DNA of 64,000 bases from Dehalococcoidia bacterium. Its GTDB lineage: Bacteria; Chloroflexota; Dehalococcoidia; Lucifugimonadales; UBA3495. The number at the start of each line of letters is the position of its first letter. Position 1 is the stretch's first letter. The notes under the pieces are model-generated. The model did not search any database. It was given only the letters and a program-made list of their open reading frames with translations, and was not told the DNA's origin. The stretch is taken from the NCBI GenBank assembly GCA_965204865.1, contig OZ242027.1, positions 1,731,353 to 1,795,352 on the forward strand. The letters are read 5' to 3'. A program made the position numbers and the translations under genes. Positions 2,293 through 29,571 of this stretch are shown here, piece after piece.

Positions 2293-2314
2293 CAGAATCT
2301 CTGCTGAATAGCAG

Positions 2315-11803: not shown

Positions 11804-13487
11804 ACTGCCCTGGCCCTGATGACCGAACTTACAGAACGGGTAGGGAGTACCTCGGTGAGTTCAAAGCCGGACTTGGCCAGGAGGTACCTGAACTGTTCCT
11901 CTGTGCGCTCCGCGCCCCCGGCCACAATAAGCATGTTCAGGTCCAGCAGGCCGCCGACGCCGGTCGTGCCGTCCAACACCATCTCAACCACGGAGAGTGT
12001 GCCCCCCTTCGGCATAGCTTCCCTGGCCTGGGTCAGAATGCGCACCGCGTCATCGTCCTGCCAGTCGTGCAGTACCCGGGCCAGTACCACCGCGCCGGAC
12101 CGGACCGGCCATTCGTTGAAGAGATCGCCGGGAACAAACCGGCAACGGTCCCCGATGTCGTCGGGTGCCTTGGCTAGGCCTACTACCTCCGAAAGATCCA
12201 TGACGGTGGCGGTCAGGCCGGGATGGGCACGAAGCAGGGTGAATGCCAGTTCGCCGGTGCCGCCGCCAGCGTCCAGTATGTGGTTGTGGCTTCCAAAGTC
12301 CCAGTCGGCCGCCAAGTCCTGGTAGTCGTGCCTGGCGTAGCTGGCAAAGGCCCTGTGAGAGGATTGCAGTTGCTCCGGCCTGTCCTTCAGTAGCTGGAAA
12401 AGGTTCTGGCCGTACAGCTTCCTGATGGCGGAGTTGCCGGTGCGGAGTGAGTACTCCGCCTCGGTCCAGGCCCTGTAGGTCTCGCCACCCCACAGGGAGG
12501 CGGCATCGGCCAGGGAGTGCAAGTGCGAGCGTTGTAGCAGGGCGCCCTTTTCGGTGTGGTGGTAGACGCCCTCGGCATCGGCCTGGACGAGTCCCAACTC
12601 CGTAAGGGCTCGTATCAGCCGGAGCCCCACGGAGTCCGCCAGTTCGAGCGATTCTTCGATGTCCTCTGCTGACGCCGGCAACGACTCGAACACACCCATT
12701 TCCACCGCAGCCCGTATGGCCTGGGTCCTCCACATCCCCACCATGTCGCCGGAGAGTTCCTCAAGAGGAGTGCGAAGAGACTCCCTAAGTTTGACCAGGA
12801 TCTTTCCTGACTCCCCGATGACCGACAGCGAACCGTCAAACCCTTCCACCCTGGCCTGCCCGTTGTAGAAGGGCTCCGCATTCCTGTAGCGGTCCTGGTA
12901 CAGCGGCTGTCCGTGAACATCGACGTGGTGCCAGCCCTGCTCATCCCGAGCACGGGCGAAGTTCTTGTGGAACACATCCAGATCGAGGAACCACCGCCCA
13001 TGCAACAGAGCGCCGGAGGGGCCGATGTGGCTGTGCCGCCCGTCATCGCTTTGCACAACGGCAGAGCCGTCCTTGAAATCCCCGGCATAGCGATAGCGCT
13101 CCTCATAGGCCGGGTTGCCGTCTTCCACAAGGTGAAAGTAGCGCCCGCCTGAGCCTCGCACGGTGCAGCGCCCCTCCTGGAAGTTGCCGCACCAGGCATA
13201 CCGCTCCGGGTAAAGGGGACTGCCGTCAGGCAGGACGTGGAGCCATCCGTCAATGGAATGCACCGCGGCGCGCCCCTCGTAGAACCCGAAGGTCCTGATG
13301 TAGCGGGGATCATAGGCCGGCAGACCGTCGGGGGTGACGTGGTAGGCGCCGGTGCTGTCCACCACCGGCGCCAAGCCCGGCGCGTGGAACTTCAGCACCT
13401 CCAGGAACCGCGCTTCGTAGACGGGTCTCCCGTAGCAGACGTGATGAGTGCCGTCCGCCGCTATCCTGTATTCTCGCCAGTTGCCGC

Positions 13488-14548
<1,061 letters not shown>

Positions 14549-14552
<4 letters not shown>

Positions 14553-15913
14553 CGCCCTCCCCTTTCCCGGATCAGTCCCTCGTAGATCTGCTCCACGGCG
14601 AGGGCATGGTCTCGGATGTCGGGAACGTTGCCGTCGGCAGACTGCAAATACCCCCGGCGGCCTAACCGTGTCGCCAGTCCCGGGTCGTCGGCCAGCCGCT
14701 GCATCTGGCGGGCCAGCGACTCGGGGTCCCGGTGGGTGAAGAGCAGACCGTTCTCTTCGTGGTGGACGTATTCGGCCATGCCGCCATAGTCGGCGGTGAT
14801 CACCGGCACGCGGGCCTGCTGGGCTTCGTGGATCACCAGCGGCGAGTTCTCGGCCCAGATGGACGGCACCACGATGGCGTCGCACAAGTTGAACACGTCC
14901 GGGACAATGTTCTGGTTACGGTACTCGCCCATCCACTCGACACGATCTCCGGCGGTACCAGGCAAGCTGCGGGCCAGCGCCTTTAGTCCCTGAGTCTCCA
15001 CTCCCCGGTCCCGCCCCCAGATGCGGAGCCTGCTCTCCCCGGACAGCCGCCCGAAAGCCTGAATCAGGTGGTCCACGCCCTTGGCCGGTATGTGAGTGCC
15101 GATGTAGCCGAAGGTAAAGGGATCGCCTGGGGCGCGCTCCCTGTCTGCCATCCGGTCAAGGTGGAAGCCGTAGTCCAGGTAGACAAGTTTCTCCTCAGGG
15201 AGGCCGAATTCGTTCCTGAACCGGCGCAGCAGGTACCTTGCCGGGGCGATGAACACGTCCACTGCGTCGCATACCTCGCGCACGTGGGACATGCGGCGAC
15301 CCACCCACCGGGTCCAGTAGTCGGCGTCCAGTTCGTACTCCCGCGCGTCTCCGGAGAAATACCGGGAGTAGCAGCGCTCGGCGCACTTGCGGTCGTCCTG
15401 TCCATTACAGACGGCCCAGGGGTCGGAGGGATCCTCCGGATACGTCTGGATGAACTGTCCCCGCGGGCACATCACCCAGTAGTCGTGGAGAGTGAACACC
15501 ACCGGCACGCCGCAATCCCTGGCAGCAAACACCAGAGACGTGGACAGGTGGTTCAGGTGTCCCACGTGGATCACATCCGGCTTAACTTCATCGAGGACAT
15601 CGGCAAAGGCGTGATCCACGGCCCGGTGCCGGTAGCCGTCTCTGGCCCTGGCCATGTTGACGACGTGAAGGGTGATATCCGGCGCGGAAGGGTCGGAGTC
15701 CCTTTGCACCTCGTATTCCTGGAGGAAGGCGTTTTCCTGCCTGGTGAAAACGTGGACCTCGTGCCGCTCCGCCAACGCTTGTGCCAGGCCCTGGGTATAG
15801 ACCTCCGAGCCGGCGTTATAGCGCATCGGATAGCCGTGAATCACTTGCAGAATTTTTAATTGCTGGCCCGGCAATCTCGGTTTCTCCTTGCTGTCGGCAA
15901 AGTCGTACCTCAT
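14549..15913 (-). CDS. GT-B fold glycosyltransferase, family 4-like
   Basis: LKILQVIHGYPMRYNAGSEVYTQGLAQALAERHEVHVFT (GT4 N-terminal domain). C-terminal VVPSIWAENSPLVIHEAQQARVPVITADYGGMAEYVHHEENGLLF (E-x7-E-type region). Confidence 0.82.
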
Positions 15914-15922
15914 TTTCCAGCG

Positions 15923-15951
15923 ATGATAGTAATAATGTTATTGCCGGTCAA
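15923..15951 (-). promoter_or_regulatory. Candidate sigma70-type promoter for the GT4-rSAM-OMT-phosphatase operon
   Basis: On the minus strand: TTGACC (15951-15946), 17-nt spacer, TATCAT (15928-15923), in an AT-rich patch. The ATG at 15913 lies only 9 nt past the -10, implying a leaderless or near-leaderless mRNA. Confidence 0.3.
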
Positions 15952-16089
15952 TGGGATGAGATGAGGACCAATACTACGCTCCTTTCCGCCTACACCCTTT
16001 TGCAGAATTTGTGCTCGCCGGTTCCGTTTGCTTGTAGGGTCTGGCATGAGGAAGCATCCCACCAGCAGGAGAGAGATACGCTATAAGCA

Positions 16090-16818
16090 AACGGACCCTT
16101 CAGCCAGTTGATAGTCCGCTCCGCCAGATTGAGTTGCTGGTTCACGGTCCGGTGGAAAGGACCAACGCGTTGTTCGTTGATTTTCCGTGGGATGGTAAAG
16201 CTTATTCTCCACCGCCTGAGGCAGGCCCTGATCCTGCGGCTGCTGTACCCTTCGTCAGCGCTGACACCGCGGACTCACTGCGGCTTGATACGGGGACGGC
16301 CGCGTCCGGAACGCCTCACAGCTCCTTGGACCATCAACTCCTCGAACGCGCTGGCCTCGTGACATTAACCAGGAGTCAGCACGAATGCTGCCGCGTTGCC
16401 CTGGCCCTCGACCTTCAGTTGGACTTTGGTCCCGAACCCTCCTTCGGGTACAGCCCAGCGCCTGACCGTCCTCCCTCCTTTGCCCCAGCCGCGTGCTGAT
16501 GCGCCCGGACGCTGGCGCCGTCCATGTAGTCCACTTCGCACTCAACATGCCCGGCGGCATCGGCTTCCCGCTGCACCTGAGTCAGAAACCGCTCCCACAA
16601 TCCCTGTTTACCCCACCGGTATGAAGGGCTGGCTACCCTGCCACAAGGCCCACAGCGCTGCGCAGGTTGGGCCTAGGGGCGCCGGCACGCAAAAACCACC
16701 AGACCCCGTTGATGATCATGCGACGGTCCTTCCCGGGCCGCCCAGTGATCGGCTTCCGGGCCGGCAATTGCGGCTTCATTCGCCGCCATCGATCATCCGT
16801 CAAATCCCCTCGTACCAC
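16090..16818 (-). pseudogene. IS5-family (IS427/IS1031-like) transposase pseudogene, multiply frameshifted with in-frame stops and C-terminally truncated
   Basis: Segments in different frames: MVRGDLTDDRWRRMKPQLPARKPITGRPGKDRRMIINGVWWFLRAGAP, then GLWERFLTQVQREADAAGHVECEVDYMDGASVRAHQHAAGAKEGG, then GGFGTKVQLKVEGQGNAAAFVLTPG(stop)CHEASAFEELM, then ADEGYSSRRIRACLRRWRISFTIPRKINEQR...NLAERTINWLK. Confidence 0.8.
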
Positions 16819-17230
16819 CCGCCTAACTCGTCATTACAACCTGTCTCATCCAGTTTAAGCTTCACAATCGGGTTTGCAAACGCGCCCTGGTGCTCTCCCC
16901 AGTCGGCGCTACTTATAGGGATAACCCAAATAGAGCCCTGCCAGGGTGTCCTGTAATTCACCCGGCTGAAAACTTCCCTTACGTGGGAGTTCTGACCGGA
17001 AACCAGATTCGCCATTGTCTACGGAATCAATTTCTTATTTGGATGGAATACAGAATTTACACATTAAAATATACAACTCTTTCGGCATACCTATTGAGTT
17101 ATACACTCAAACAGTCATTACAGTGCCTACGAATTTCTGCGGATATCTTGCGCGAAAGATAAAACTTTCCGGGTACTTGACAATCATATGAGGTGGGAAT
17201 TTTGGACAGGAACCGCAAAGGAGCGAAAAT

Positions 17231-17539
17231 ATGACTGGGCGTTTACCGCCGTTCGCCATCCACCTCAAAAGTCTGCGGGAGAAATCGGGTAAAAGCCGGT
17301 ACGCAATCGCCAGATACGCAGAGTTGGACGAAGCCTATCTGCTCCGGCTGGAATCGGGGGCTCGCCGGAATCCGTCGAGGGATGCAGTGATAAAAATTGG
17401 CCTTGCACTGGTGTCGGGAACGACTAAGATCACGAGGCACGATATCGACCGGCTCCTGGTATCGGCCGGCTATCTCCCGCTAATGGGCAGGGGTGAGCCG
17501 CTTTTCGAGGTGGACCAAGGAGACTGGACCGATAGCTAA
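17231..17539 (+). CDS. XRE-family helix-turn-helix transcriptional regulator; 3' end runs into the IS3 left inverted repeat
   Basis: AAGGAG Shine-Dalgarno 7 nt upstream of the ATG. HTH region LKSLREKSGKSRYAIARYAELDEAYLLRLESGARRNPSRDAV. The last ~11 codons (EVDQGDWTDS*) are encoded by the IS3 IRL starting near 17506. Confidence 0.75.
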   Translation: MTGRLPPFAIHLKSLREKSGKSRYAIARYAELDEAYLLRLESGARRNPSRDAVIKIGLALVSGTTKITRHDIDRLLVSAGYLPLMGRGEPLFEVDQGDWTDS

Positions 17540-18867
17540 ACGGTAATCCTGCTCCAAACTAAAGACAGCAATTGCCGTTGTCGAGGCGGAGCGGGAAATG
17601 TCCAGAGAGCGGAGAAAGTACAGCCCGCCTCCAAGGCTAGAATTGCACTGGTGGCATTGAAGGGAGAGCAGACGATGCCCGCGCTAGCCGCCCGGTTAAG
17701 GTCTACCTCAACCAGATTCAGAGGTGTATGTAGGTTCTGGCCGATGCCGAGGCAGCCATCTTTGCCCACGTCAACGGGACCGATAAGGGCAACGAGTCGA
17801 GGAACAACGACACCTTGGTGGTCCTGTTGTACCAGCAGACCGGACAGCTGAAGGAGAAGCGGGATTTCTTTCAGGAGAGGGCGGCTCCGTGATTCCAGCA
17901 CGGCGGCGCGTGATGGTCGACTGGCGACATCGGCACCTATCCGTGGTGCGGCAGTGCGAGTTCATAGGCGTCGGCAGCCCCAGCCTCCACTACCGTGCCA
18001 AGGAGACCTCGCAACGGGACCTGTCCCTGATGCCGGAGGTGGACCGCCAGTACCTGGAAACCCTCTTCCAGGGTTCCGGGCGGGTGAGGGCCTCCCTGGA
18101 ACGGCAAGGCATGCCGGTAAGCCGTAAGCGGGTACAGCGGCTCATGAGACGGGGCTGCGGTCCATCTACCGGCAGCGCCGCGCCAGCCAACCGGCGCCGG
18201 AACGCCAAATGTACCCCTGCCTGCTGAGGAACTGACGATTGCCCGTACGAACCGGGTATGATCCGCTGACATCGCCTATCTGCCCATGGCCAGGGGATTT
18301 CTCTACTTGGTGGCCATCATGGACTGGTACGGCCGTTAGGTGGCGGCCTAGCGTTTGTCCAACACTCTGGTGGCCAGCTTTTGCATCGAGGCGTCGGGCG
18401 ATACCCTGAGCCAGGGAACGCCCGACCTTTTCGAAACCCGCCAGAGAAGCCGGTTCACCAGCCGCAAGTTCACGCAGATACTCCAGGATCACTAGGCGAG
18501 GATCAGCCCGGATGGCAGAGGCCAGTGCCAGGAAATCGTAGCCGTCGAGCGGCTATGCAGGACGGTGAAGAACGGGAAGTCTACCTAAAGGCCTTCGCCA
18601 ACGGCCTTGAGGCCCGCGAGAGTACTTCCGGTTCTACGACCACCGGAGGCCGCATCAGGCCCTGGGACTACCGGACGCCGCTCGTGTGCCTGCTGCACTG
18701 TACCTGGGACGTTAGTCGCCAGCCGCTGAAACCCATGCTTGGGACTTTCTATCAATGGCCGCCGGTAAGCCGAAAATGGTGGCCCTGAATGCCTGCATGA
18801 GGTACTGATGGTGATCCTGAACTCCACGCTTAAGCACGGTTCATCTTGGAACCACGGGGCCACCAAG
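17506..18867 (+). mobile_element. Decayed copy of the IS3-family element found intact at 57176-58591
   Basis: IRL-like CGAGGTGGACCAAGGAGACTGGACCGATAGCTAAACGGTAATCCTGCTCC aligns with the intact IRL TGAGGTGGACCCAAGAAACTGGACAGGTAGCTAAGTGGGAATCCTGCTCC. IRR-like TCTTGGAACCACGGGGCCACCAAG ends near 18867. The orfA/orfB homologous sequence is broken by many frameshifts, stops and deletions (e.g. MSRERRKYSPPPRLELHWWH..., fragments [57 protein letters not shown]). Confidence 0.8.
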
Positions 18868-18980
18868 TCCCCGGCCCATTTCCATTGACCTTCCAGACAG
18901 TTGCTTGACACCAGGGGAGAAAGAAGTTGGGAAGACTATCCAGCCACTGTTAACCCGGTAGTGCCGGGTCCGGCTACGGC

Positions 18981-20039
18981 TCACTTCTTCCTCTTGGACC
19001 TCGGTTTTCCGGCGTTGGGATAAACCCTGCCTCTAGCGTCTTCGAAGTTGAACCGGTGTCTGGACCGGCCTGATTTGGCCACTTTCAGGTTATCCAAAGG
19101 TGAAGACCTTTGGCCCATCAGGGCCCTGTGTTGGTCTGCCAGGTGAATATACTGTTCGACCATGGCCCAAGTGGTATGCCCCAGGTTCTGCTTGAGCAGG
19201 AAGGGGTCGCCGCCGTGAATCAGGAATTGGGTGGCGTAGGTGTGCCTCAGCAGGTGGGCGTGCAGCCTGGGGACGCCACTGGTGTCGGCGAGCCTTCTCA
19301 TAATTGACTTGAGGGCTTCTTTTTGCATGGGGTATCCGTCGATGGACAGGAAGAATGCGTCAGCGGAAGAGGAATCCGCCTCGAACCTGTAGTGGTAGTC
19401 ATAGTGTATGAGGGTTCGCTGGCAGTTCGCTCCGAAGGCCACCACGCGCTCCTTGTTGCCCTTGCCCAGCACCTTCAGGTACCGGTCTTCCAGGTGAACA
19501 TTCTCAGGCTCAAGCCTGACTACCTCGGCGAGCCTGAGCCCGGTGTCAAGCATTAGGGTGACCATTGCAGTATCCCTGGCACCCAGAACAGTGTCTTGGT
19601 TCATGCTGCGCAGGATCCTGTCGATATCGTCACCCGTTAGGATGTCCTTGACCTTCTTGGTGAACTTGGGTGGCTTCATATGCTCGAGGCGATGCTCTTT
19701 CGTGTACCCTTGGCTGTGAAGCCAACTGAAGAAGGCTCGAAGCGCCCTCACCCTGTTGTTCACCGTGGTGCTGGAAGCGAAACCCCGGTTGCCCTTCCTG
19801 GTCTGGACGTAGAGCACGAACTGCCTGGCCTCCTCCTCTCCCAGGTCATCAATCAAGCAGGACATGCCCTCTTCTTGCAGCCAGCGGTGAAAGAGACCCA
19901 GGGCCTCGTTGTACCAGCCAACGGTTTCCTGGGACTTTCCCTCCGACCTGTTGTGAACCTCGAACTGGAGAATGAGAGTCGGGAGTTCCAATTTCCGCGA
20001 AGGCATTTTCCGTCTCCGAACTGACTGTCTTTGTGTCAT
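18981..20039 (-). CDS. Tyrosine recombinase / phage-type integrase
   Basis: N-terminal SAM-like core-binding domain (SEGKSQETVGWYNEALGLFHRWL). Catalytic region ARDTAMVTLMLDTGLRLAEV (Arg), HLLRHTYATQFL (H-x-x-R), LGHTTWAMVEQYIH (His..Tyr). Start is ATG 20039 or 20003. The ORF-track extension to 20441 reads through a tRNA-like sequence. Confidence 0.88.
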   Translation of the reverse strand: MTQRQSVRRRKMPSRKLELPTLILQFEVHNRSEGKSQETVGWYNEALGLFHRWLQEEGMSCLIDDLGEEEARQFVLYVQTRKGNRGFASSTTVNNRVRALRAFFSWLHSQGYTKEHRLEHMKPPKFTKKVKDILTGDDIDRILRSMNQDTVLGARDTAMVTLMLDTGLRLAEVVRLEPENVHLEDRYLKVLGKGNKERVVAFGANCQRTLIHYDYHYRFEADSSSADAFFLSIDGYPMQKEALKSIMRRLADTSGVPRLHAHLLRHTYATQFLIHGGDPFLLKQNLGHTTWAMVEQYIHLADQHRALMGQRSSPLDNLKVAKSGRSRHRFNFEDARGRVYPNAGKPRSKRKK

Positions 20040-20240
20040 AATATGTACTTGCCTCACAGTTGAGAATTGCCTGGCAGGCAAGCATTCGGAGACGGGGGCT
20101 TGGCGGCAGAAAAGGCAGGGGACCGGATTAGGAGGGCTGGCGGGAGAATCGCCGGTCAATCGGCCGACCGGGTGTCGATTTGAAGCTGTAAGGGGCGGGA
20201 ATTTCCAAATTCCCGGCTGGGGCGCAGGACGTTTAATTTG

Positions 20241-20281
20241 CAAGCAGGGGGTCAGGGGTTCGACCCCCCTCACCTCCACCT
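20241..20281 (+). other. tRNA/tmRNA-like 3' fragment (T-arm + 3' acceptor strand), candidate att/direct-repeat site
   Basis: AGGGG-TTCGACC-CCCCT (T-stem/loop, 20254-20270) followed by CACCTCC-A-CC (20271-20280). No matching 5' acceptor strand (GGRGGTG), D-arm or anticodon arm in the preceding 90-250 nt. GGACG upstream is reminiscent of tmRNA 3' regions. Confidence 0.5.
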
Positions 20282-20556
20282 CGTCGCAGACTGCTTGCGT
20301 TGCCCCTGATATGGCCTCTGTCTCTCTGAAGAGGTTCCGATTACTTTCACTTTTCCGCAGTACCATAAAGACAGTCGTGGGACTGCTATGGACCGTCCTC
20401 TGCTGCTTAATTGTCTGATCATACATACTTGACTGGCGCACAAGTAGCTGGTATGCACCTAGCGCACAAGACTGGACTCAAGATGCGTTCCGGGGGCGGT
20501 CATCATTGTCAGAGATGGACTAAGAGCATCGAAAAGCAGGCAGGAGGGCAAAACGT

Positions 20557-21957
20557 ATGGCAGAACTGAAAATTGCGACCCTTTCCGGCGACTACGCCGT
20601 CATCAGCGAGGCGGCGGTCGAGGACTTCCGGGGCAGTTTGCACGGGGAGTCTCTGCTCCCGGATGATGCCGGGTACGACAGCGCCCGGCGCATCTGGAAC
20701 GCCATGATTGACAAACGGCCCGCCCTGATTGCCCGTTGCAGCGGAACCGCCGACGTAATCTACTCGGTCAACTTCGCCAGGGATAACGGCCTGCTGATAT
20801 CGGTGCGCGGCGGCGGCCATAACTTCCCGGGCAACAGTGTTTGCAACGACGGGCTGATGATAGACCTTTCCCGGATGACCGGCGTCCGCGTTGATCCGGC
20901 GTCCAGAACGGTCCGGGCCCAAGGCGGGACTAAGTGGGGAGCATTCGACCACGAGACCCAGGCCTTCGGACTCGCCGCGCCCGGAGGGACCGACCTGGAC
21001 ACCGGCATCGCCGGTCTCACGCTGGGCGGGGGCATCGGATGGCTGTCCGGCAGCTACGGCCTCAGTTGCGACAACCTGGTTTCCGCCGACGTGGTCACCG
21101 CCGACGGCCAGCCGCTCACCGCCAGCGCCGACGAGAACCCCGACCTGTTCTGGGGGATTCGTGGCGGCGGCGGCAACTTCGGCGTCGTCACCTCTCTCGA
21201 GTACCAACTCCATCCCGTCGGGCCTGCGGTGCTGGCGGGCTGGTTGATCTACCCCTTCGACAAGGTGAGGGAGTTCTTCGCCCAAGTCAATGACTTCACG
21301 AACAATATGCCCGACGAGCTGAACCTCATCACCTTCCTGCACACACTCCCCGATGATGGCGGAAGAGCGTGCAGCATCCTGCTCTGCTACCACGGCCCCA
21401 TCGAAGAAGGAAAGCGAGTCATTCAGCCCCTCCGGGAGTTCGGTCCGCCATTACTGGACGACATTAAACCCATGCCATACACCGAGGCCCAAAAGCTGGC
21501 GGTGGCTCCCGCAGGACGCCAGAACTATCTGAAATCCCATTTCGTGAGCCAGGTCGGCGATGGCATTGTGGACATAGCGCTCGACTATTTCGAGCGGATA
21601 ACCTCGCCGCTATCGTCCATCCTCTTCCAGTATCTCGGCAACGCCGCCCGGCGCGTGCCCGCCAACGAGACTGCCTTCGGTCACCGGGGCGCCCTGTGCG
21701 AGTGGGCCACCAATGCGGTTTTCCTGGACCCGGGGGAATCCGAGGTCCACGTCCGCTGGGCCCGGGATTTTGCCTCGGAATTGTCGCCCTTCTCCTCGGG
21801 AGCCTACATCAACCAAGTCGGCACCGAAGCGGAAGAGGGGGCGGAAGAAATACAGGCGGCCTTCGGGGACAACTTCCAGAGGTTGGCAGCCCTGAAACAG
21901 AAGTACGACCCGGCGAACCTGTTCAGCCACAACCAGAACATCCGGCCCAGAGTCTAG
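20557..21957 (+). CDS. FAD-linked oxidase (FAD_binding_4 / berberine-bridge-enzyme-like C-terminus)
   Basis: ISVRGGGHNFPGNS, GGTDLDTGIAGLTLGGGIGWLSG, C-terminal YDPANLFSHNQNIRP. Confidence 0.85.
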   Translation: MAELKIATLSGDYAVISEAAVEDFRGSLHGESLLPDDAGYDSARRIWNAMIDKRPALIARCSGTADVIYSVNFARDNGLLISVRGGGHNFPGNSVCNDGLMIDLSRMTGVRVDPASRTVRAQGGTKWGAFDHETQAFGLAAPGGTDLDTGIAGLTLGGGIGWLSGSYGLSCDNLVSADVVTADGQPLTASADENPDLFWGIRGGGGNFGVVTSLEYQLHPVGPAVLAGWLIYPFDKVREFFAQVNDFTNNMPDELNLITFLHTLPDDGGRACSILLCYHGPIEEGKRVIQPLREFGPPLLDDIKPMPYTEAQKLAVAPAGRQNYLKSHFVSQVGDGIVDIALDYFERITSPLSSILFQYLGNAARRVPANETAFGHRGALCEWATNAVFLDPGESEVHVRWARDFASELSPFSSGAYINQVGTEAEEGAEEIQAAFGDNFQRLAALKQKYDPANLFSHNQNIRPRV

Positions 21958-22049
21958 GCCCCGAAGGGGTCGGGCGCTGACGTGCCGCGGAAGAACGTGG
22001 GATATAATGGCCGAAAGGGATGGGTTATCCCGCCCCATGGGAGCCGACA

Positions 22050-23201
22050 ATGAGCGACATCTACCTAGACTACAACGCCACCACCCCTATTGACCCGCAG
22101 GTCGCTGAGGCGATGCTGCCCTACATTCACGGGCTTTTCGGCAACCCCTCCAGCGGCCACTCCTTCGGTCTGGCGGCACGGCAGGGCGTTGACCGTGCCC
22201 GCCAACAGGTTGCCAGTCTGCTGGGTTGCGGCGAAGATGACCTGATATTCACCAGCGGCGGCACCGAGGCCAATAATCACGCCATCAAGGGAGTGGCCGG
22301 GGCCTATCGGGAAAAAGGCAACCACATCATCACATCGGCGGTGGAGCACCCGGCGGTTACCGAGGTCTGCCGCTACTTGGAAGGACGGGGCTTTGGGGTA
22401 ACCTATCTGCCGGTGGACGAATATGGGTTGGTGCATCCTCAGCAGGTCGAGGATGCCATCTCTTCCGAAACCCTGCTAGTCACCATAATGCACGCCAACA
22501 ATGAGGTCGGGACGATACAACCCATCGCCGAGATAGCCGAGATAGTCCACCGCCACGGGGCATTGATGCACAGCGATTGCGCCCAGTCAGTCGGCAAAAT
22601 CCCCGTGCGGGTGGATGACCTGGGCGTTGACATGCTCTCCGTGGCCGGACACAAGCTGTACGCTCCCAAGGGCATCGGCGCGCTCTACATCCGTCCCGGT
22701 GTCCGGCTGGAAAAGCTGATGCACGGCGCCAACCACGAGCAGGACCGCCGCGCCGGTACGGAGAACGTCATCGAAATGGCGGGCTTGGGCATGGCCTGCG
22801 AGTTGATTCAGCGAAATCTCAATCAGTACGCAAGGCACATGGCGGAGATGCGCGACCGGCTGGAGCAGGGCCTGCTGAGTTCTGGTATGGACGCACGGGT
22901 GAACGGCCACCCGGAAAGGCGACTGCCCAACACCACCAGCATTAGTTTCCGGGGATTGGAGGCCGACCGGGTGCTGGCGAACCTGCCCACCGTGGCCGCC
23001 TCCGCCGGGGCAGCTTGCCACAGCGATCAGGTCGAGGTGTCCCACGTGCTGGCGGCGATGAATGTTCCCGAGGAATACGCCATGGGGACGCTTCGCCTCA
23101 CCGTGGGCCGCTTCACCACGGAAGGGGAAATTGACCGGGCAATTGCCGAGATACGGGAGGTTGTGGACACCTTGGCCCCTGCCCCCTCGGCGGCGGACTG
23201 A
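22050..23201 (+). CDS. Cysteine desulfurase (NifS/IscS class-V aminotransferase family)
   Basis: IYLDYNATTP, FTSGGTEANNHAIKG, SVAGHKLYAPKGIGALY (PLP Lys), active-site loop SAGAACHS. ATG 22050 preferred over the ORF-track 22020. Confidence 0.88.
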   Translation: MSDIYLDYNATTPIDPQVAEAMLPYIHGLFGNPSSGHSFGLAARQGVDRARQQVASLLGCGEDDLIFTSGGTEANNHAIKGVAGAYREKGNHIITSAVEHPAVTEVCRYLEGRGFGVTYLPVDEYGLVHPQQVEDAISSETLLVTIMHANNEVGTIQPIAEIAEIVHRHGALMHSDCAQSVGKIPVRVDDLGVDMLSVAGHKLYAPKGIGALYIRPGVRLEKLMHGANHEQDRRAGTENVIEMAGLGMACELIQRNLNQYARHMAEMRDRLEQGLLSSGMDARVNGHPERRLPNTTSISFRGLEADRVLANLPTVAASAGAACHSDQVEVSHVLAAMNVPEEYAMGTLRLTVGRFTTEGEIDRAIAEIREVVDTLAPAPSAAD

Positions 23202-23339
23202 AATGGAATTGCCTGAACTGTGATTTATATGATTTTGAGATTTTCAGGATGGATGTCCTGAATCCTGTCTATCTGTTAATCACATGAATCACAGTTCAGA
23301 CAATCACAGCACAAGAACCAAGATAAGGATGGCAGAGAT

Positions 23340-24689
23340 ATGACCACACAGACCAACCCCGGCGCCCTGGACTCCGCAACTCTCGCCGACTTCCAGCAAG
23401 CCTTCGAGTCGCACCCTTCCCACCAACTGATGCAGAACGTGGTCACCCAGCATGACGTGAACGACGTTGCCCTCAACCGCAATCTCGTCGCAGAGGCGGT
23501 CCACTCCTTTTCCACCGTCTTGGACGATTGGAGCGTAACGAACCAGGCCCGCTCGGGCCGCTGCTGGATGTTCGCCGGCCTGAACCTGTTCCGGTCGGAG
23601 ACGAAGAACCTGCTCAGCGTCAAGGAGTTCGAGTTCAGCCAGAGCTACGTGATGTTCTGGGACAAGATGGAACGGGCCAATTACATCCTGGAAGCCGTCA
23701 TCGAGACCGCCGACCGCCCCGTTGACGACCGGGTGGTTGCCTGGCTGCTGCACCAGCCCTTGGGCGACGGCGGCCAATGGGATATGTTCGTCAGCCTGGT
23801 CCGGAAGCACGGCGTCGTTCCCAAGGCCGTAATGCCCGAGACGGAAAGCTCCGGCAACTCGATGCGAATGAACGCCGGGCTCAACTACCAGGTGCGCCAG
23901 GGAGCCCGCAACATCCGGCGCATCTACGCTGAAGAGGGCGGGCTGGACGAGATGCGGGAAGCCAAGCAGGAAGCTCTGCGGGCTATCTACCAGGTCCTCT
24001 GCATCCACTTGGGCAACCCGCCGACCAGCTTCAACTGGCAATGGAAGGACAAGGACGGCGGGTTCCACCGCGACGGCGCCATGACTCCGCTGGAGTTCGC
24101 CGAAAAGTATATCGCCACGCCGATGGAGGAATACGTCTGCCTGGTCCATGACCCGCGCCGGGCCAACCCGCCGGGCCGCACCTACACCGTACAGTACCTC
24201 GGCAACGTGGTGGACGGAACCCGCATCAAGTACCTCAACGTGGACATCGAACTGATGAAGGACATCGCCATGCGGATGCTCCAGGATGGCAAGCCCGTCT
24301 GGATGGGTTGCGACACTGGCAAGCAGATGCACCGCGACAAGGGCCTGTGGGACGCCGAACTGTTCGACTACGCCAGCGTCTACAACGCTGAGTTCTCGAT
24401 GAACAAGGAGGAAAGGCTGGAGTACCACCAGACGGCCATGACCCACGCCATGCTGTTCACCGGCGTGGACGTGGTGGAGGGTCAGCCGCGCCGCTGGCGG
24501 GTGGAGAACAGTTGGGACGATAAGGTGGGCGACAAGGGGTTCTTCCTGATGAACGATTCCTGGTTCGCCGAGTATATGTTCGAGATAGCCGCTCCGAAGA
24601 GCTACCTCCCGGAGGACTTGCAGCAGGCCCTTGACCTCGAGCCAGTGGTGCTGCCGCCGTGGGACCCGATGGGGTCTCTGGCTGCCTGA
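23340..24689 (+). CDS. pepC: Aminopeptidase C / bleomycin hydrolase (peptidase C1B)
   Basis: QARSGRCWMFAGLN (catalytic Cys), HAMLFTGVD (His), VENSWDDKVGDKGFF. Confidence 0.88.
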   Translation: MTTQTNPGALDSATLADFQQAFESHPSHQLMQNVVTQHDVNDVALNRNLVAEAVHSFSTVLDDWSVTNQARSGRCWMFAGLNLFRSETKNLLSVKEFEFSQSYVMFWDKMERANYILEAVIETADRPVDDRVVAWLLHQPLGDGGQWDMFVSLVRKHGVVPKAVMPETESSGNSMRMNAGLNYQVRQGARNIRRIYAEEGGLDEMREAKQEALRAIYQVLCIHLGNPPTSFNWQWKDKDGGFHRDGAMTPLEFAEKYIATPMEEYVCLVHDPRRANPPGRTYTVQYLGNVVDGTRIKYLNVDIELMKDIAMRMLQDGKPVWMGCDTGKQMHRDKGLWDAELFDYASVYNAEFSMNKEERLEYHQTAMTHAMLFTGVDVVEGQPRRWRVENSWDDKVGDKGFFLMNDSWFAEYMFEIAAPKSYLPEDLQQALDLEPVVLPPWDPMGSLAA

Positions 24690-24692
24690 GGT

Positions 24693-25625
24693 TCAGGTTC
24701 TGTATCCCTCGGGAGCGTCCGCTCGCAGTTTTGCGATTCCTTCCGCCAGCCCAGGATGAGTGATGCCCAACGACTTCATCGTCGCGGCGCAGTCCAGACC
24801 GAGCAGGTCGCCGTTCCCTGGCTGCGCCTTATCCCGTGGGGAACCAGTCTCTGCTGGGGCGCTCGCAAGGGAAGGAACTGGGATTACCAGTTCCTCATCC
24901 AGGTTGAAAGCCCGGGCCACTGCAATGGCGAAGTCGTACATACTTACCCAATCGCGACCTGCCACATGGTGGATTCCCTGAAAGTCCCCCTCCACCACTC
25001 TCGCAATGCCGTCGGTCAGGTCTTCGACATAGATCGGTGTGCGATAGACGCCGGTAGGGCCGTGGTATGGCTGGCCGCTCCGCAGTCGTTGGATTAGCCA
25101 AGGAGCGAAGTTACGCTTTCCCGGAGCCGGCCAGCCATACACGATACTGGTGCGGAGAATGCTCCAGTGGGAAGCCAGGTGCATAACTGCCCGTTCCGCT
25201 TCCCACTTGGTTTGCCCGTAGTGGGTGGTGGGGCTGGGCGTACCGTCTTCGCGGTAATAACCGCGCTTGCCGTCGAATACGTACTCCGTGGACATGAACA
25301 CTAGCTTGGCCCCGTGCTGTTCACACAACCGCGCAATGGTTGACGTTCCCTCCACGTTGATCGCTGTGGCCCTCTCCGGCTCCCTTTCAGCCTTGCCCAC
25401 GTCAGCCATCGCCGCAAGGTGTAACACAACCTCGGGCCGGGCTGCCGCGAAAGCCTCCTCCAGAGCGATCCTGTCGGTCAGTTCGGCCCGAATCCATGCG
25501 ACTGCGTCGCCAGTGGGCGGCCCAGACCAATAGGCGCCATAAACCTCATGAGCAGCAGTCTCCGTTAGGCGTCGAGACACATATTGCCCGATGAACCCAC
25601 TGGCCCCGATAATCAAGATTCGCAT
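24693..25625 (-). CDS. Extended-SDR sugar reductase/epimerase (RmlD/dTDP-4-dehydrorhamnose reductase-like)
   Basis: MRILIIGASGFIGQYV Rossmann motif, YGQTKWEAE (YxxxK). Substrate not assignable. Confidence 0.7.
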   Translation of the reverse strand: MRILIIGASGFIGQYVSRRLTETAAHEVYGAYWSGPPTGDAVAWIRAELTDRIALEEAFAAARPEVVLHLAAMADVGKAEREPERATAINVEGTSTIARLCEQHGAKLVFMSTEYVFDGKRGYYREDGTPSPTTHYGQTKWEAERAVMHLASHWSILRTSIVYGWPAPGKRNFAPWLIQRLRSGQPYHGPTGVYRTPIYVEDLTDGIARVVEGDFQGIHHVAGRDWVSMYDFAIAVARAFNLDEELVIPVPSLASAPAETGSPRDKAQPGNGDLLGLDCAATMKSLGITHPGLAEGIAKLRADAPEGYRT

Positions 25626-25694
25626 CTAACGCCTTCAGTTATCAGATTCGTCTGAAACCTCCTCATGGCTTCCAGCCAGTACCTCTCAGATTCG

Positions 25695-26684
25695 CTACCG
25701 CGATGGGAACCGGGCCGCCAGAATGTCCTGCATCAGCCGGGCCGCCACCTGAACCGTCAGCTCCGAGTTGTCGTAGGGCGGCGCAACCTCCACTATGTCG
25801 AAGGCGACGAGGTTGGACTTCGCCAGCAGCGCCAGCAGGCACTCACGGGTTTCCTGGTAGAACAGCCCGCCGGTTTCCGGGGTGCCGGTGCCGGGGGCTT
25901 GGCTGGGGTCGAGAACGTCCACGTCGAAGGTGATGTACAGGTTCTCGGCGGCGGGAATCATATCCGCCACTGCCTTCGGGCCAAGTTCCCGGAAGCGGCT
26001 GCCGCTGATAATCAGGCTGCCGTCCCGCATCGCTTCCTCGTAGGGTATGCGTCTCGCCGACCGGATGCCCACGGACGTTATATGCCCCACGAAGTCCAGC
26101 TCCCGGCAGCGACGGATGGGGCTGGCGTGGGTGTAGAGGACGTCCTGCACATCGTGGGTGTAATCGAGATGGGCGTCGAAGTGGACGATGTTCAGGGGCG
26201 CGAACTTGGACAGGCCGCGCACCACCGGAAAGGTTATCGCATGATCGCCGCCCACCACCGCCGGAAGAGCGCCCCGCTCCACGGCCTGCTCCACCGCCCG
26301 CGTGATGCGGTCGAAGTTGCCCACCACTTCCGACGGCACGATGGGGACATTGCCGCAGTCGGCCATAATCACGCCGCGCAGCAGTTCGTCTTCGGCGTCG
26401 ATGTCGAAGAAGCCCTCGGCAACGCTTTGTCGGCCATAGGGGTCTGAATATGAATAGGCGCGGGGCGCGTCTCTCAGGGCGTCCGGGCCGAAGCGCGCCC
26501 CCGGCCTTCCCAGCGTGCCTTGGTCGAAAGGCACGCCGATGAAGGCGACGTCGGCTTCCAGGCTTTCGATGTCTTCACACAGGGGGGCGTTGAAGAAGGT
26601 TCTTGGTCGCGCCCGTAGAGCGGGCCACGGCTCTTGCGGCTGGCCCGATGGCGCTGGGGTGGCGGTCATGGGTATCCTCCACAA
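25695..26684 (-). CDS. Ureohydrolase family enzyme (agmatinase/guanidino-acid hydrolase-like)
   Basis: Mn-site motifs VVGGDHAITFP, IVHFDAHLDY, ITFDVDVLDPSQAPGTGTPE. Confidence 0.85.
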   Translation of the reverse strand: MWRIPMTATPAPSGQPQEPWPALRARPRTFFNAPLCEDIESLEADVAFIGVPFDQGTLGRPGARFGPDALRDAPRAYSYSDPYGRQSVAEGFFDIDAEDELLRGVIMADCGNVPIVPSEVVGNFDRITRAVEQAVERGALPAVVGGDHAITFPVVRGLSKFAPLNIVHFDAHLDYTHDVQDVLYTHASPIRRCRELDFVGHITSVGIRSARRIPYEEAMRDGSLIISGSRFRELGPKAVADMIPAAENLYITFDVDVLDPSQAPGTGTPETGGLFYQETRECLLALLAKSNLVAFDIVEVAPPYDNSELTVQVAARLMQDILAARFPSR

Positions 26685-26723
26685 GGGTATCGGTCACATG
26701 GGTATCTCTGGGCTTCCGTAGAG

Positions 26724-27497
26724 CTACTGCGCGGTGGTGCCTCCATCAATCACCAACTCTGCGCCGGTGACGAAGGACGATTCGTCGGAAGCCAGGTAGA
26801 CGATGCCATGGGCAATGTCGTCAGCGTTGCCCAGCCGCCCCAGCGGGATGCGCTCCAAGGACCACTCGCGCCGCCCTTCCTCGCCGGAGTAGCCGGGGTC
26901 GGTCAGCGGTGTCCAGCAGTAGCCGGGATGCACCGAGTTCACCCGTATGTTTTCCCCGGCATACTGAACTGCGGCGGATTTGGTGAACAGGCGGCTGGCG
27001 CCCTTGGCGGCATGGTAAGCGGTGGAGGTAGGGCTGCCCACCAGCCCGTATATGGACGATACGTTGATGATGGAGCCGCCGCCCGCCTTCCGCATTTCCG
27101 GGATGGCGTGCTTGGTGCCGAGGAAGACCCCCTTGGCGTGGACGTCCATCTGCCCCTGCCAGTCTCCTACGGACGTTTCTTCCACTGTCAGCCGGGCGCC
27201 GGTGCCGGCGTTGTTGACCAGCACGTTCAGCTTGCCGTAACGGCTCACGGTCTCGGCGATGACTTCCAGCCAGCGTTGCTCGTCGGTGACGTCGTGTTCC
27301 AGGAAAATCACGTCGCCGCCGTTCTCCCGGATCTGGGCGGCGGTGGCCTCTCCCATTTCCACTTTGATGTCGGTCAGGACTACCTTCGCGCCCTCGCGGG
27401 CGAACATCCGGGCCGCCGAGCCGCCGAATCCCATCAACTGACCTTCGACCCCAGCCGCCGCGCCGGTAATGATGGCAACCTTGTTCTCCAGACGCAT
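26724..27497 (-). CDS. Classical SDR family oxidoreductase
   Basis: KVAIITGAAAG, LVNNAGTG, SSIYG...YHAAKGA (S-Y-K triad). Confidence 0.85.
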   Translation of the reverse strand: MRLENKVAIITGAAAGVEGQLMGFGGSAARMFAREGAKVVLTDIKVEMGEATAAQIRENGGDVIFLEHDVTDEQRWLEVIAETVSRYGKLNVLVNNAGTGARLTVEETSVGDWQGQMDVHAKGVFLGTKHAIPEMRKAGGGSIINVSSIYGLVGSPTSTAYHAAKGASRLFTKSAAVQYAGENIRVNSVHPGYCWTPLTDPGYSGEEGRREWSLERIPLGRLGNADDIAHGIVYLASDESSFVTGAELVIDGGTTAQ

Positions 27498-27535
27498 AAT
27501 CGAACCCCTATCGAATTTGGAATGTTCCGTCCTTC

Positions 27536-27563
27536 GCCATTCCCGCGAAGGCGGGAGTCCAGG
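27536..27563 (+). repeat. REP-like hairpin repeat, family B copy
   Basis: CCATTCCCGCGAAGGCGGGAGTCCAGG: palindrome CCCGC-GAAG-GCGGG in the 73-bp spacer between two same-strand genes. Matches the copies at 45883 and 45951. Confidence 0.7.
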
Positions 27564-27570
27564 GTTGTGC

Positions 27571-28086: not shown

Positions 28087-28232
28087 CCGTGTGCCTCCTG
28101 TTCTGCGAGATGAATCGCTGTGAAGATTATAGCCAGTATAGAGGATGCACCGGCAACAGCCGGGTGGCGGTGTCCAGTATACTTGCGCCAGCGGCTATAA
28201 TCGCCCTGTAACCGAGCGACGGGAGGTTTCTG

Positions 28233-28751: not shown

Positions 28752-28765
28752 GTAATACGAGCTAT

Positions 28766-28803
28766 ATTCCCTCTCCCTCTGGGAGAGGGTTAGGGTGAGG
28801 GCG
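28766..28803 (-). repeat. REP-like hairpin repeat, family A copy (reverse orientation)
   Basis: ATTCCCTCTCCCTCTGGGAGAGGGTTAGGGTGAGGGCG, with hairpin CCCTCTCCC/GGGAGAGGG. Confidence 0.8.
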
Positions 28804-28826
28804 CACTCGCCCATTAAGGAGACGAT

Positions 28827-29504: not shown

Positions 29505-29511
29505 CCTGGTT

Positions 29512-29550
29512 CGCCCTCACCCTAACCCTCTCCCGGAGGGAGAGGGAATT
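29512..29550 (+). repeat. REP-like hairpin repeat, family A copy
   Basis: CGCCCTCACCCTAACCCTCTCCCGGAGGGAGAGGGAATT, a near-identical inverse of the 28766-28803 copy. Confidence 0.8.
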
Positions 29551-29571
29551 TCATAGGCATGGAGGCAACAG

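Follow-up and report, generated by a model that had tools for sequence, protein, structure and literature searches.

The locus described here raises the question of whether a short tRNA-like sequence that lies beside a tyrosine integrase gene marks the edge of a genomic island and, if so, in which gene and at which position the island was inserted. Both features lie in a stretch of 64,000 nucleotides of contig OZ242027.1 from a Dehalococcoidia bacterium, which was analysed as a whole and is referred to below as the window. A preliminary description, made from the letters of the window, had placed an att-type remnant at 20241-20281, had interpreted it as the right edge of an island reaching left past the integrase, and had proposed an Ala/tmRNA-type origin. 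Results of the analysis indicate that plus-strand positions 20237-20280 are very probably the host-derived half of an attR-type junction of a genomic island integrated at tRNA-Ala(UGC). Coordinates are collected in Table 1; loci used for comparison are designated by L numbers.

Identity and extent of the tRNA-Ala fragment

The identity of the fragment was evident from comparisons with intact tRNA-Ala(UGC) genes of >20 Dehalococcoidia genomes, which the sequence at 20237-20280 (+) matched at 44/44 positions from the first base of the anticodon loop (position 32) to the 3' end. A T-arm and acceptor string noted previously (AGGGG-TTCGACC-CCCCT-CACCTCC-A-CC) was located exactly where it had been placed, at 20254-20280 (+), as a single occurrence in the window and with 0 occurrences in 100 shuffles. 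The presence of a remnant was not in doubt, but its limits had to be moved from 20241-20281 to 20237-20280. Similarly, the earlier statement that the 5' acceptor strand, D arm and anticodon arm are all missing held for the D arm, which is lost in L033 as well as in the window, but not for the anticodon arm, of which the loop and the 3' stem strand are present, nor entirely for the 5' acceptor strand, of which a degenerate trace, GGGGCGCAG, was noted at 20219-20227. This trace aligns with GGGGTGTAG of the full-length tRNA-Ala copies in L034 and L037.

No RNA gene was called by ARAGORN or Rfam (gathering thresholds) anywhere in the 64-kb window. Neither a second copy of the fragment nor a tRNA-Ala 5' half was found in the window with ≤3 mismatches allowed, and no tRNA gene, including the predicted distal intact tRNA-Ala, is present in the window. 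The 24-nt T-arm plus acceptor pattern common to tRNA-Ala(UGC) was present in one copy per genome in most related assemblies. The sequence at 20237-20280 is a tRNA-gene fragment displaced from its gene, as in islands recognized by Islander, and we infer that it is non-functional.

Table 1. Positions of features at and around the probable island junction in the window
Feature	Position	Strand	Basis or remark
O-methyltransferase gene	11800-13710	-	Pfam; L122 match covers part only
Island cargo common with tRNA-Val copy of element	12397-17230	.	82-94% nucleotide identity to L122
Radical SAM/SPASM gene	about 13488-14550	-	Pfam
GT4 glycosyltransferase	14549-15913	-	Pfam
XRE-type HTH protein, 102 aa	17231-17539	+	Pfam HTH_31/HTH_3; convergent with integrase
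IS3-family remnant	17579-18900 (right limit approximate)	.	HTH_21; between integrase and HTH gene, part of element
Xer-like tyrosine integrase, 341 aa, apparently intact	18981-20006	-	Pfam Phage_integrase and SAM-like N-terminal domains
Spacer, integrase start to att junction	20007-20218	.	Conserved with L033, L034, L037, L122
11-nt inverted repeat	20010-20020/20085-20095		In spacer
Integrase promoter-like site	20066-20038	-	In spacer
Palindrome TTGCCTG-C-CAGGCAA	20067-20081		In spacer
9-bp hairpin	20196-20215		In spacer
Inner end of element arm	20219-20236	+	Alignments with related loci
Displaced 3' fragment of tRNA-Ala(UGC), very probably host-derived half of attR-type junction	20237-20280	+	44/44 match
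Anticodon loop TTTGCAA (anticodon TGC)	20237-20243	+	Part of tRNA-Ala fragment
Anticodon-stem 3' strand GCAGG, then variable loop GGGTC		+	Within tRNA-Ala fragment
T arm	20254-20270	+	Part of tRNA-Ala fragment
Acceptor 3' strand CACCTCC, discriminator A and CC	to 20280	+	3' end of tRNA-Ala fragment
Host DNA 3' of tRNA-Ala site	20281-33208	.	Synteny 76-88% and Pfam
FAD/BBE oxidase	20557-21957		Variable proximal part of host flank
Aminotransferase	22020-23201		Variable proximal part of host flank
Peptidase C1	23340-24689		Variable proximal part of host flank
RmlD-like	24693-25625		Variable proximal part of host flank
Arginase	25695-26684		First of conserved block
SDR, nitroreductase, DUF4286, luciferase-like, Ald/Xan dehydrogenase (xanthine-DH-like)			Conserved block after proximal part

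The integrase and its position

Membership of the integrase in the tyrosine recombinase superfamily was indicated by a Phage_integrase domain (PF00589, 6e-32), SAM-like N-terminal domains and a complete catalytic R-K-H-R-H/W-Y set (R144, K182/185, H251, R254, H277 and Y286) that is invariant in the family alignment. A chromosomal XerC/XerD dimer-resolution recombinase was considered and rejected, given scores of 173.5 and 169.9 bits against NCBIfam XerC/XerD equivalog cut-offs of 335 and 330, a patchy distribution among relatives and the location of the gene next to tRNA genes. The preliminary assignment of a leftward integrase starting at 20039 was right as to strand and type of enzyme but not as to the start, since ATG 20039 falls within a promoter-like -10 box; translation from ATG 20006 gives a product of the same length as in the closest homologues. 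Identities with homologues were 99% (L033), at least 90% (L122) and 76-77% (L034 and L037).

At many loci, a gene for tRNA-Arg, -Pro, -Lys or -Ala was located ~200-300 nt from a relative of this integrase. The corresponding distance between integrase and fragment in the window is 230 nt, with the integrase on the island side, as Islander expects of integrase placement. In the window the integrase sits at the fragment end and diverges from the fragment, unlike its tRNA-Arg, -Pro and -Lys relatives, in which the integrase follows the 3' end of an intact tRNA, and this difference speaks against the interpretation preferred here. The integrase-proximal half of the spacer is also kept in the tRNA-Arg-associated relatives L039, L121 and L120. 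More distant relatives (~33% identity) beside tRNA-Val or tRNA-Gly formed tandem paralogue pairs and were judged too distant to be informative. Within 10 kb, related loci had no short tRNA repeats at their far ends.

Position of the crossover

The element/host boundary was determined from alignments with loci that carry the same module. In L033, another metagenome contig, the module corresponding to 18039-20280 is 99.3% identical, this identity ending at the tRNA 3' end, as opposed to about 84% identity for host genes; this comparison showed that the integrase module has, as judged from sequence identity, been recently mobile. In L122, which comes from a third genome and contains the same element (module 92% identical, with the same HTH, GT4, radical SAM and methyltransferase cargo as window 12397-18080), an arm identical to that of the window (...GGACGTTTAA|) is joined, in other host context, to a tRNA-Val(UAC) 3' fragment that starts from the anticodon loop, and the junction in L036 is at the same tRNA-Val(UAC) site. 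Accordingly, the partner of the window element arm is tRNA-Ala in two loci (the window and L033) and tRNA-Val(UAC) in two others (L122 and L036), with the identity block beginning exactly at anticodon-loop base 1 in each of these loci. From these junctions it was shown that one element has used a second tRNA gene, Val-UAC. Because the identity of the L033 module contrasts with the divergence of host DNA and the same arm recurs at tRNA-Val in L122, element DNA and host DNA can be clearly told apart, and the alignments showed the boundary to lie at 20236/20237, with crossover at the anticodon loop. An L120 junction was likewise noted at the anticodon arm; this locus looks like an inverted-orientation recombinant.

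On the element side of the boundary, GACGTTTAA stands in place of the D arm and anticodon-stem 5' strand and abuts the anticodon loop, at a position where L034 and L037 have a full tRNA-Ala 5' half. The motif GGACG upstream of the fragment, previously offered as a feature of tmRNA 3' ends, proved to be element-arm sequence common to L033, L122 and L036.

Identity from the anticodon loop/stem to the 3' end of the gene corresponds to an anticodon-centred att sublocation. Flanking symmetry has been reported for anticodon-loop sublocations (10.1101/2020.11.02.365908). At the present junction, probably of the attR type, the element arm has TTTAA where the anticodon-stem 5' strand would be CCTGC, and since the arm is without this strand, flanking symmetry was not seen. 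Across the anticodon loop, the adjoining stem strand and the variable loop (TTTNCANGCAGGGGGTC), 15/17 positions are the same in the Ala and Val fragments, the 7-nt anticodon loops differing at 2 positions. The lack of flanking symmetry and, if the overlap is the 7-nt loop, these two differences are further observations that speak against the preferred interpretation.

DNA on either side of the junction

The origin of DNA to the right of the junction was evident from synteny (76-88%) with DNA located directly 3' of intact tRNA-Ala(UGC) in about 10 related chromosomes (L005, L006, L014, L019, L021, L023, L027, L031, L032 and L028), in which no copy of this integrase was found in the DNA examined around the tRNA gene. 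Comparison with related genomes, which had been suggested at the outset, thus gave the result expected of an island: the native downstream neighbourhood lies beyond the fragment and the island is absent from relatives, as in Islander. The same genomes also share a conserved flank of >6 kb 5' of tRNA-Ala, with genes for a URO-D-like methyltransferase, a corrinoid protein, RACo, a 2-hydroxyacid dehydrogenase and a 359-aa protein, and this flank is absent from the window. With the 359-aa protein as query, no match among the cluster representatives listed was assigned to L033 or L034, and with the PD-(D/E)XK protein of the window as query, no orthologue was found on OZ242013.1 (best match 66% identical).

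The preliminary view that everything to the right consists of metabolic genes needs correction, as a second IS3-like remnant is located at 57247-58292. Two direct repeats of GCGCACAAG that had been listed to the right of the fragment do exist, at 20436-20444 and 20462-20470, in host DNA that precedes the FAD/BBE oxidase gene. As two copies per 64 kb were reached in 20/100 shuffles, these repeats appear unrelated to the junction.

To the left of the junction, IS elements and accessory genes were found, consistent with the IS-rich accessory DNA of the preliminary description. The IS3-family remnant next to the integrase, which contains Pfam HTH_21 in ORF 17889-18227, is 73-80% identical to the second remnant to the right of the junction and is common to L033 and L122, the L122 copy having an IS21 element inserted into it. 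The HTH gene is 50-60% identical to the gene directly after the integrase in L036-L042, L044 and L045, and an HTH gene occupies the equivalent position in L120 and L121; the XRE-type HTH gene is a conserved partner of this integrase family. The adjoining cargo matches L122 14509-21020, on the integrase side of the junction in that locus, at the identity given in Table 1. The island was thereby shown back to at least 12397 and probably continues past the left window border. The portion of the island inside the window showed no conjugation genes.

Proposed mode of integration

In the interpretation that we consider very probable, an island with its own Xer-like tyrosine integrase would have recombined with chromosomal tRNA-Ala(UGC) at the anticodon loop. 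The DNA from 20236 leftwards would be island, comprising the element arm, integrase, IS3-like remnant, HTH gene and glycosyltransferase/radical SAM/methyltransferase cargo, and that from 20237 rightwards would be the original tRNA-Ala 3' part followed by the ancestral downstream neighbourhood. The other end of the island would carry a tRNA-Ala regenerated from the host 5' half and an element-borne 3' half, and the predicted empty site is an intact tRNA-Ala followed by TCGTCGCAGACTGC.... The original proposal that an att-type remnant marks where an island ends on the right agrees in this respect with host synteny, with L033 and L122 and with the habit of the integrase family. An analogous complete island is represented by L026 and L011, an intact gene and a 53-nt 3' fragment (with a different integrase) that lie on one contig, 68 kb apart and in the same orientation.

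Alternative interpretations

Integration of the mirror type is, in our judgement, unlikely. The element would in that case supply the tRNA 5' half, and regeneration would place the complete gene beside the integrase (cf. L034 and L037) and a displaced 5' fragment at the far end. A local 20-to-9-nt replacement would later have disrupted the regenerated gene in the window, and the functional tRNA-Ala would lie elsewhere. Such an arrangement is suggested by the full-length tRNA-Ala copies beside the integrase in L034, L035, L037 and L038 (100% canonical in L038), by the 5' acceptor-strand trace that the window arm retains at the homologous position, and by L037, in which no second tRNA-Ala copy was found within 11 kb. 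Islands with 5' fragments are known (159/3919 in Islander; PMC4383910), and upstream integration at arg2 has been reported (10.1101/2020.11.02.365908). The full-length copies in these four loci, together with L037, where the housekeeping genes def, cca and secDF follow, also speak against the preferred interpretation and leave room for more than one ancestral architecture. However, the defective arm containing GACGTTTAA is fused to two tRNA genes (Ala and Val) in four lineages, so the element must have moved or long persisted without regenerating the gene from this side, and in mirror-type integration apparently single-copy tRNA genes would thereby be lost. In addition, A1 and A53 in the L034 and L035 copies, the latter breaking the G53:C61 pair, resemble decay of a redundant copy, and two T-loop changes were noted in the L033 fragment; from the decay of integrase-proximal tRNA-Ala copies it follows that a functional copy must exist elsewhere. 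The native promoter-like site, located upstream of tRNA-Ala in L005, was also absent upstream of the full-length L037 copy, 5' of which no promoter-like site of any kind was noted.

A second alternative, that an ordinary tRNA-Ala pseudogene decayed in place by local deletion next to an uninvolved integrase, is very unlikely. Although sequence upstream of the fragment aligns with the full-length L034 and L037 copies except for the 20-to-9-nt replacement and two substitutions, decay in place does not fit with 44 perfect 3' nucleotides and a 5' part destroyed right up to the anticodon loop, with the replacement of the conserved tRNA-Ala 5' flank by island DNA, or with the difference between module and host identities in L033. 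The same arm at the same position on tRNA-Val in L122 and L036 also counts against this alternative, which L122 largely refutes.

An origin from tmRNA (ssrA), either as a 3' remnant or as the acceptor piece of a two-piece tmRNA, or expression of the sequence as a tRNA-like minihelix, is extremely improbable. An Rfam match to tmRNA was obtained (22.9 bits, E = 3e-7 in an 800-nt search) and a hairpin of GGGGGU/ACCUCC stacked on the T arm, with G:U as the third pair, was predicted. That match is nevertheless well short of the gathering score of 47 and skips 328 model positions, the permuted-tmRNA model scored 13.5 bits, and ARAGORN found no tmRNA. Upstream of the T arm, the variable loop and anticodon arm of tRNA-Ala, including the Ala anticodon loop, were found in place of tmRNA-specific sequence, and the false 5' acceptor GGGGGT is the 3' end of the anticodon stem plus variable loop, present in every intact tRNA-Ala copy; the tmRNA/minihelix reading was dropped for this last reason. 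As for a minihelix, the fold is not exceptional (z = -1.5) and no plus-strand promoter-like site was found. Thus, of the Ala/tmRNA-type origin first proposed, only tRNA-Ala was upheld. Practically no weight is given to the idea that the fragment is the attP site of a plasmid or phage that has not integrated. The fragment does adjoin the integrase as attP sites do, but the right flank is chromosomal by synteny with about 10 genomes without the integrase near this tRNA, and viral contigs, phage records and plasmid records contained no close integrase relatives (best <30% identity) and no copy of the fragment.

Comparison with known systems

Islands specific for ssrA in Dehalococcoides, a member of the same bacterial class, were reportedly described by McMurdie et al. 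in 2011 as inserted at the 3' end of a tRNA-like gene, leaving direct repeats. In contrast, the target in the window is tRNA-Ala(UGC), with crossover at the anticodon loop and not at a tmRNA 3' end. The att site of the actinomycete element SLP1 spans a whole tRNA-Tyr gene and in this respect resembles the full-length tRNA-Ala copies beside the integrase in L034 and L037; pSAM2 and SLP1 belong, however, to a different phylum and integrase subfamily, and the 5' part of the window copy is destroyed. ICEAfe1 of Acidithiobacillus ferrooxidans, whose target we take to be a tRNA-Ala gene, is a large conjugative element of a proteobacterium, unlike the island part seen in the window. According to the passage of 10.1101/2020.11.02.365908 that cites this work, integration of ICEAfe1 needed no more than ~19 bp of target tDNA around the anticodon loop, which fits with a short shared core sufficing for the use of tRNA-Ala and tRNA-Val here.

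A close correspondence is with the Islander class of Williams and colleagues that combines a 3' tDNA fragment with an anticodon-centred attP. This arrangement is that of the commonest class in Islander, in which 3760 islands had a 3' fragment and 2083 an anticodon-centred attP (PMC4383910). Features common to this class and the window are a tyrosine integrase inside the island, a native downstream neighbourhood beyond the fragment (PMC4383910) and the use of different tRNA genes by one integrase family (PMC4383910; 10.1101/2020.11.02.365908). Differences are that the window integrase is at the fragment end and divergent rather than beside the regenerated gene, and that the window arm has a vestigial tRNA 5' end without the anticodon-stem 5' strand. 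The junction is nevertheless of an ordinary, well-known kind, that of the anticodon-centred class of tRNA-gene islands.

Implications

Current understanding of island integration is unchanged by these findings, the value of which lies in annotation and in studies of integrase site switching. They fix precisely, at 20236/20237, the right edge of an island acquired by horizontal transfer in the Dehalococcoidia-type genome of an uncultured organism, and all DNA from the integrase leftwards to at least 12.4 kb is to be regarded as mobile cargo and not as core genome. In this clade, tRNA-Ala(UGC) is an insertion hotspot for at least three recombinase types, and the two tRNA genes used by a single element lineage have a core of the anticodon arm in common. 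A more far-reaching reading, which we consider unlikely, is that the attachment region in this Chloroflexota-specific lineage of Xer-like integrases includes a complete tRNA-like sequence and has been flipped with respect to the relatives that target tRNA-Arg, -Pro and -Lys, possibly via the near-palindromic TTGCAA anticodon loop of tRNA-Ala(UGC), and that the lineage retargets between Ala(UGC) and Val(UAC) through a ~17-nt anticodon-arm core despite a destroyed 5' tRNA mimic. If this reading is true, the family would offer a natural example of switching in both the tRNA-site specificity and the directionality of an integrase.

The tRNA fragment

When a 24-nt T-arm plus acceptor string was searched against prokaryotic genomes, one per species, 32 loci were recovered, most of them from chromosomes of Dehalococcoidia MAGs and nearly all with an intact tRNA-Ala(UGC) gene according to ARAGORN. 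On alignment, the fragment was identical to these genes at 44 of 44 positions. Its opening base is the first of the anticodon loop (TTTGCAA, anticodon TGC); the anticodon stem's 3' strand, variable loop, T arm and 3' acceptor strand follow, and it ends at the discriminator base plus CC. [quoted passage not shown] Within the 64-kb window ARAGORN and Rfam called no intact tRNA or tmRNA, and searches for a further copy of the 5' or 3' half of the tRNA-Ala gene found none.

A tmRNA remnant, also proposed earlier, gave way to tRNA-Ala(UGC) as the target gene. Its sole support was an Rfam match of 22.9 bits against a gathering score of 47; this match omits 328 model positions and takes as 5' acceptor strand GGGGGT, the anticodon-stem end plus variable loop of every intact tRNA-Ala in the clade. 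The predicted hairpin was unexceptional (z = -1.5).

Comparisons of the element and host sides

Comparisons show that the DNA leftwards from 20236 is a mobile element. L033, a 56-kb metagenome contig, was 99.3% identical to window 18039-20280; this similarity ends at the tRNA 3' end, the neighbouring host genes being only 83-84% identical. Two T-loop positions distinguish the L033 fragment from that of the window, which would fit a host-derived 3' part. L122 is a 4.68-Mb chromosome (the record OZ242013.1) that was reached by way of the integrase's 90% cluster. It carries the same element, which matches window 12397-20263 with 92% identity in the integrase region and 82-94% identity for the HTH, glycosyltransferase (GT4), radical SAM/SPASM and methyltransferase genes. 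There the identical arm ...GGGCGCAGGACGTTTAA is joined to TTTACACGCAGGGGGTCGCAGGTTCGAGTCCTGCACCGCCCA, the 3' part of tRNA-Val(UAC), likewise from the first anticodon-loop base, and the host genes beyond it (methyltransferase, TusA, DsrE, Meth_synt_2) are unlike those of the window. L036 is a second, diverged case at the Val site, and the tRNA-Ala gene (L002) of that chromosome is intact. Over the 17 positions spanning anticodon loop to variable loop (TTTNCANGCAGGGGGTC), the Ala and Val fragments agree at 15. The IS elements and accessory genes noted previously on the left are present: in addition to the genes shared with L122, these include a PD-(D/E)XK nuclease, Fic and sugar-nucleotide enzymes. 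In L122, the island's IS3-like remnant is itself interrupted by an IS21 element, different from that of the window.

Genes to the right of the fragment (arginase, SDR, nitroreductase, a 172-aa ORF, DUF4286, luciferase-like, Ald/Xan dehydrogenase) were compared with related genomes. The arginase-to-Ald/Xan block was 76-88% identical in nucleotides to DNA a few hundred bases 3' of intact tRNA-Ala at L005, L006, L014, L019, L021, L023, L027, L031 and L032, and at L028 the genes immediately after tRNA-Ala are those for the aminotransferase and peptidase C1 found at window 22020-24689. The right flank is thus the native 3' neighbourhood of intact tRNA-Ala. On the 5' side of tRNA-Ala, these genomes have >6 kb of conserved flank in common (URO-D-like protein, corrinoid protein, RACo, 2-hydroxyacid dehydrogenase, 359-aa protein), which was found neither in the window nor in any integrase-carrying locus. 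Therefore the 3' part and native downstream DNA are in place, and the 5' part and upstream DNA were split off by foreign DNA. The right side had been described as all metabolic genes, but an IS3-like remnant lies there at 57.2-58.3 kb. The GCGCACAAG direct repeats do exist as reported, but two copies per 64 kb were attained in 20/100 shuffles and, lying on the host side, they fall outside the junction.

Coordinates of features in the window and at comparison loci (L-numbers)
Feature	Position	Strand	Remarks
IS21-family element	181-2421		IstA 194-1489; multiple terminal repeats GGTGGGTCAATTCCAAGTGGGCGG at 2315-2421, inverted copy at 181-209
HTH gene	17231-17539		
IS3-family remnants	17579-18900; 57247-58292		73-80% identical to one another; second holds 69-nt tandem duplication (57879-58016, 99% identical)
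Tyrosine recombinase, 341 aa	18981-20006	minus	SAM-like N-terminal domains, full catalytic set
Perfect 11-nt inverted repeat	20010-20020 / 20085-20095		flanks promoter-like site
Promoter-like site	20066-20038		
Palindrome TTGCCTG-C-CAGGCAA	20067-20081		beside promoter-like site
20-nt inverted repeat	20078-20097 / 20279-20298		80% complementary; integrase-proximal motif vs first bases past fragment
tRNA-Ala(UGC) fragment	20237-20280	plus	
CTGCTTGC	20291-20298		complementary also to anticodon arm 20240-20247
GCGCACAAG	20436-20444; 20462-20470		upstream of FAD/BBE oxidase gene
Class-V aminotransferase	22020-23201		L028 orthologue broken by ~1.9-kb insertion (L028:2551-4488)
Imperfect AT-rich palindrome, 43 nt	23208-23304		79% complementary, 11-nt spacer; between aminotransferase and peptidase C1 genes
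Arginase	25695-26684		
REP-like palindromic intergenic units CCCTCACCCTAACCCTCTCCC...GGGAGAGGGAA	28766-28806; 29509-29549; 49076-49110; 50990-51024; 53434-53468; 54701-54728		two form a 41-nt, 95% inverted repeat bracketing DUF4286; similar units in L005, L006, L019, L023
CBDFLW010000004.1 island	L011:6519-7351 with L026:2611-2685		different tyrosine integrase, 53-nt 3' fragment
Large serine recombinase genes	L015:6741-7985; L025:1900-3230		adjoin tRNA-Ala 3' end
tRNA-Sec and split P4-like integrase	L034:14228-15675		Arm-DNA-bind_3 + Phage_integrase fragment; several transposases
Distant-relative loci with paired recombinase genes	e.g. L058:3396-3546; L060:4613-4780		beside tRNA-Val(CAC) or tRNA-Gly(CCC)
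Ala/Arg-like composite	L120:9750-9840		

The integrase and its relatives

The integrase is XerC/XerD-like yet far under both equivalog cut-offs, and its catalytic set is complete (R144, K, H251, R254, H277, Y286). An ATG at 20006 replaces the start formerly placed at 20039, since the closest homologues are likewise of 341 aa and the ATG at 20039 falls within the promoter-like site's -10 box. Relatives at 36-63% identity lie ~200-300 nt from tRNA-Arg(UCU), tRNA-Pro or tRNA-Lys, usually with a convergent XRE-HTH gene next after the integrase; in the window an IS3-like remnant, shared with L033 and L122, intervenes between the integrase and the HTH homologue (17231-17539). The motif TGCTTGCCTG...AGGCAAGTA upstream of the integrase is kept in relatives that target other tRNAs and may serve as an operator bound by the HTH protein or the integrase. 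The 20-nt inverted repeat was absent from L033 and L122 and is therefore probably due to chance. Distant relatives (~33% identity, L057-L076) have tandem pairs of paralogous recombinase genes adjoining their tRNA genes in either orientation. Immediately before the first gene stands a conserved motif, (A)AGAGTGCTTGCTTCGTCA, which is a copy of tRNA-Gly positions 19-33.

Attachment region and fate of the tRNA gene

In the Arg, Pro and Lys relatives the integrase lies on the 3' side of an intact tRNA, whereas in the window it lies at the fragment end and is divergent from it. At L034, L035, L037 and L038 (integrase 76-77% identical), the integrase-adjacent copy is a full-length tRNA-Ala, and at the homologous place the window arm retains a trace of a 5' acceptor strand (GGGGCGCAG vs GGGGTGTAG). 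Together these suggest that the ancestral attachment region held a whole tRNA-like sequence of which the 5' part, since decayed, would have been dispensable. Alternatively, the element could supply the tRNA 5' half, so that the regenerated gene stands beside the integrase. This is possible for L037, where no second tRNA-Ala copy occurs within 11 kb, although a consensus scan detected ahead of its copy no promoter-like site of the kind that precedes the native gene. For the window-type element, with its defective arm at two different tRNA genes, this alternative is unlikely.

We infer that an intact tRNA-Ala lies elsewhere in the genome because the fragment is unable to serve as a tRNA, because most related assemblies have the 24-nt T-arm and acceptor pattern just once per genome and because the integrase-adjacent copies look as if selection on them had ceased: the D arm and 5' anticodon stem are gone from the window and L033, two T-loop changes are present in L033, and L034 and L035 carry A1 and A53, the latter breaking G53:C61. 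The simplest reading would place a regenerated gene at the island's distal end. Another island at this tRNA shows that arrangement (L026 and L011, 68 kb apart), with the intact gene at the far end from the fragment.

Other insertions at tRNA genes

In this clade tRNA-Ala(UGC) is an insertion hotspot of several recombinases, including large serine recombinases and that of the 68-kb CBDFLW010000004.1 island. The TTGCAA core of its loop is a palindrome. At L120, beside a 61%-identical integrase, a reverse-complement tRNA-Ala(UGC) 3' part (positions 28-76) meets, at the anticodon arm, an oppositely oriented and degenerate 3' half that resembles tRNA-Arg; the composite looks like a recombinant in which the anticodon arms of two tRNAs were joined in inverted orientation. 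The tRNA-Sec region of L034, 4-5 kb past the Xer-like integrase, appears to be a second, decayed island adjoining the first.

Nature of the junction

From comparisons with L033, L122 and the wider family, the junction is, as judged by sequence, an attR-type site with crossover at the anticodon loop. The island/host boundary at 20236/20237 and tRNA-Ala(UGC) as target gene are well supported, and the island junction originally proposed is a genuine one of known kind. In Islander, a 3' fragment is left by 3760 of 3919 islands, the commonest arrangement and that seen here, and 2083 islands have an anticodon-centred attP (PMC4383910). Only two aspects are mildly unusual: one element lineage has used two tRNA genes, and the element arm carries a vestigial tRNA 5' end.
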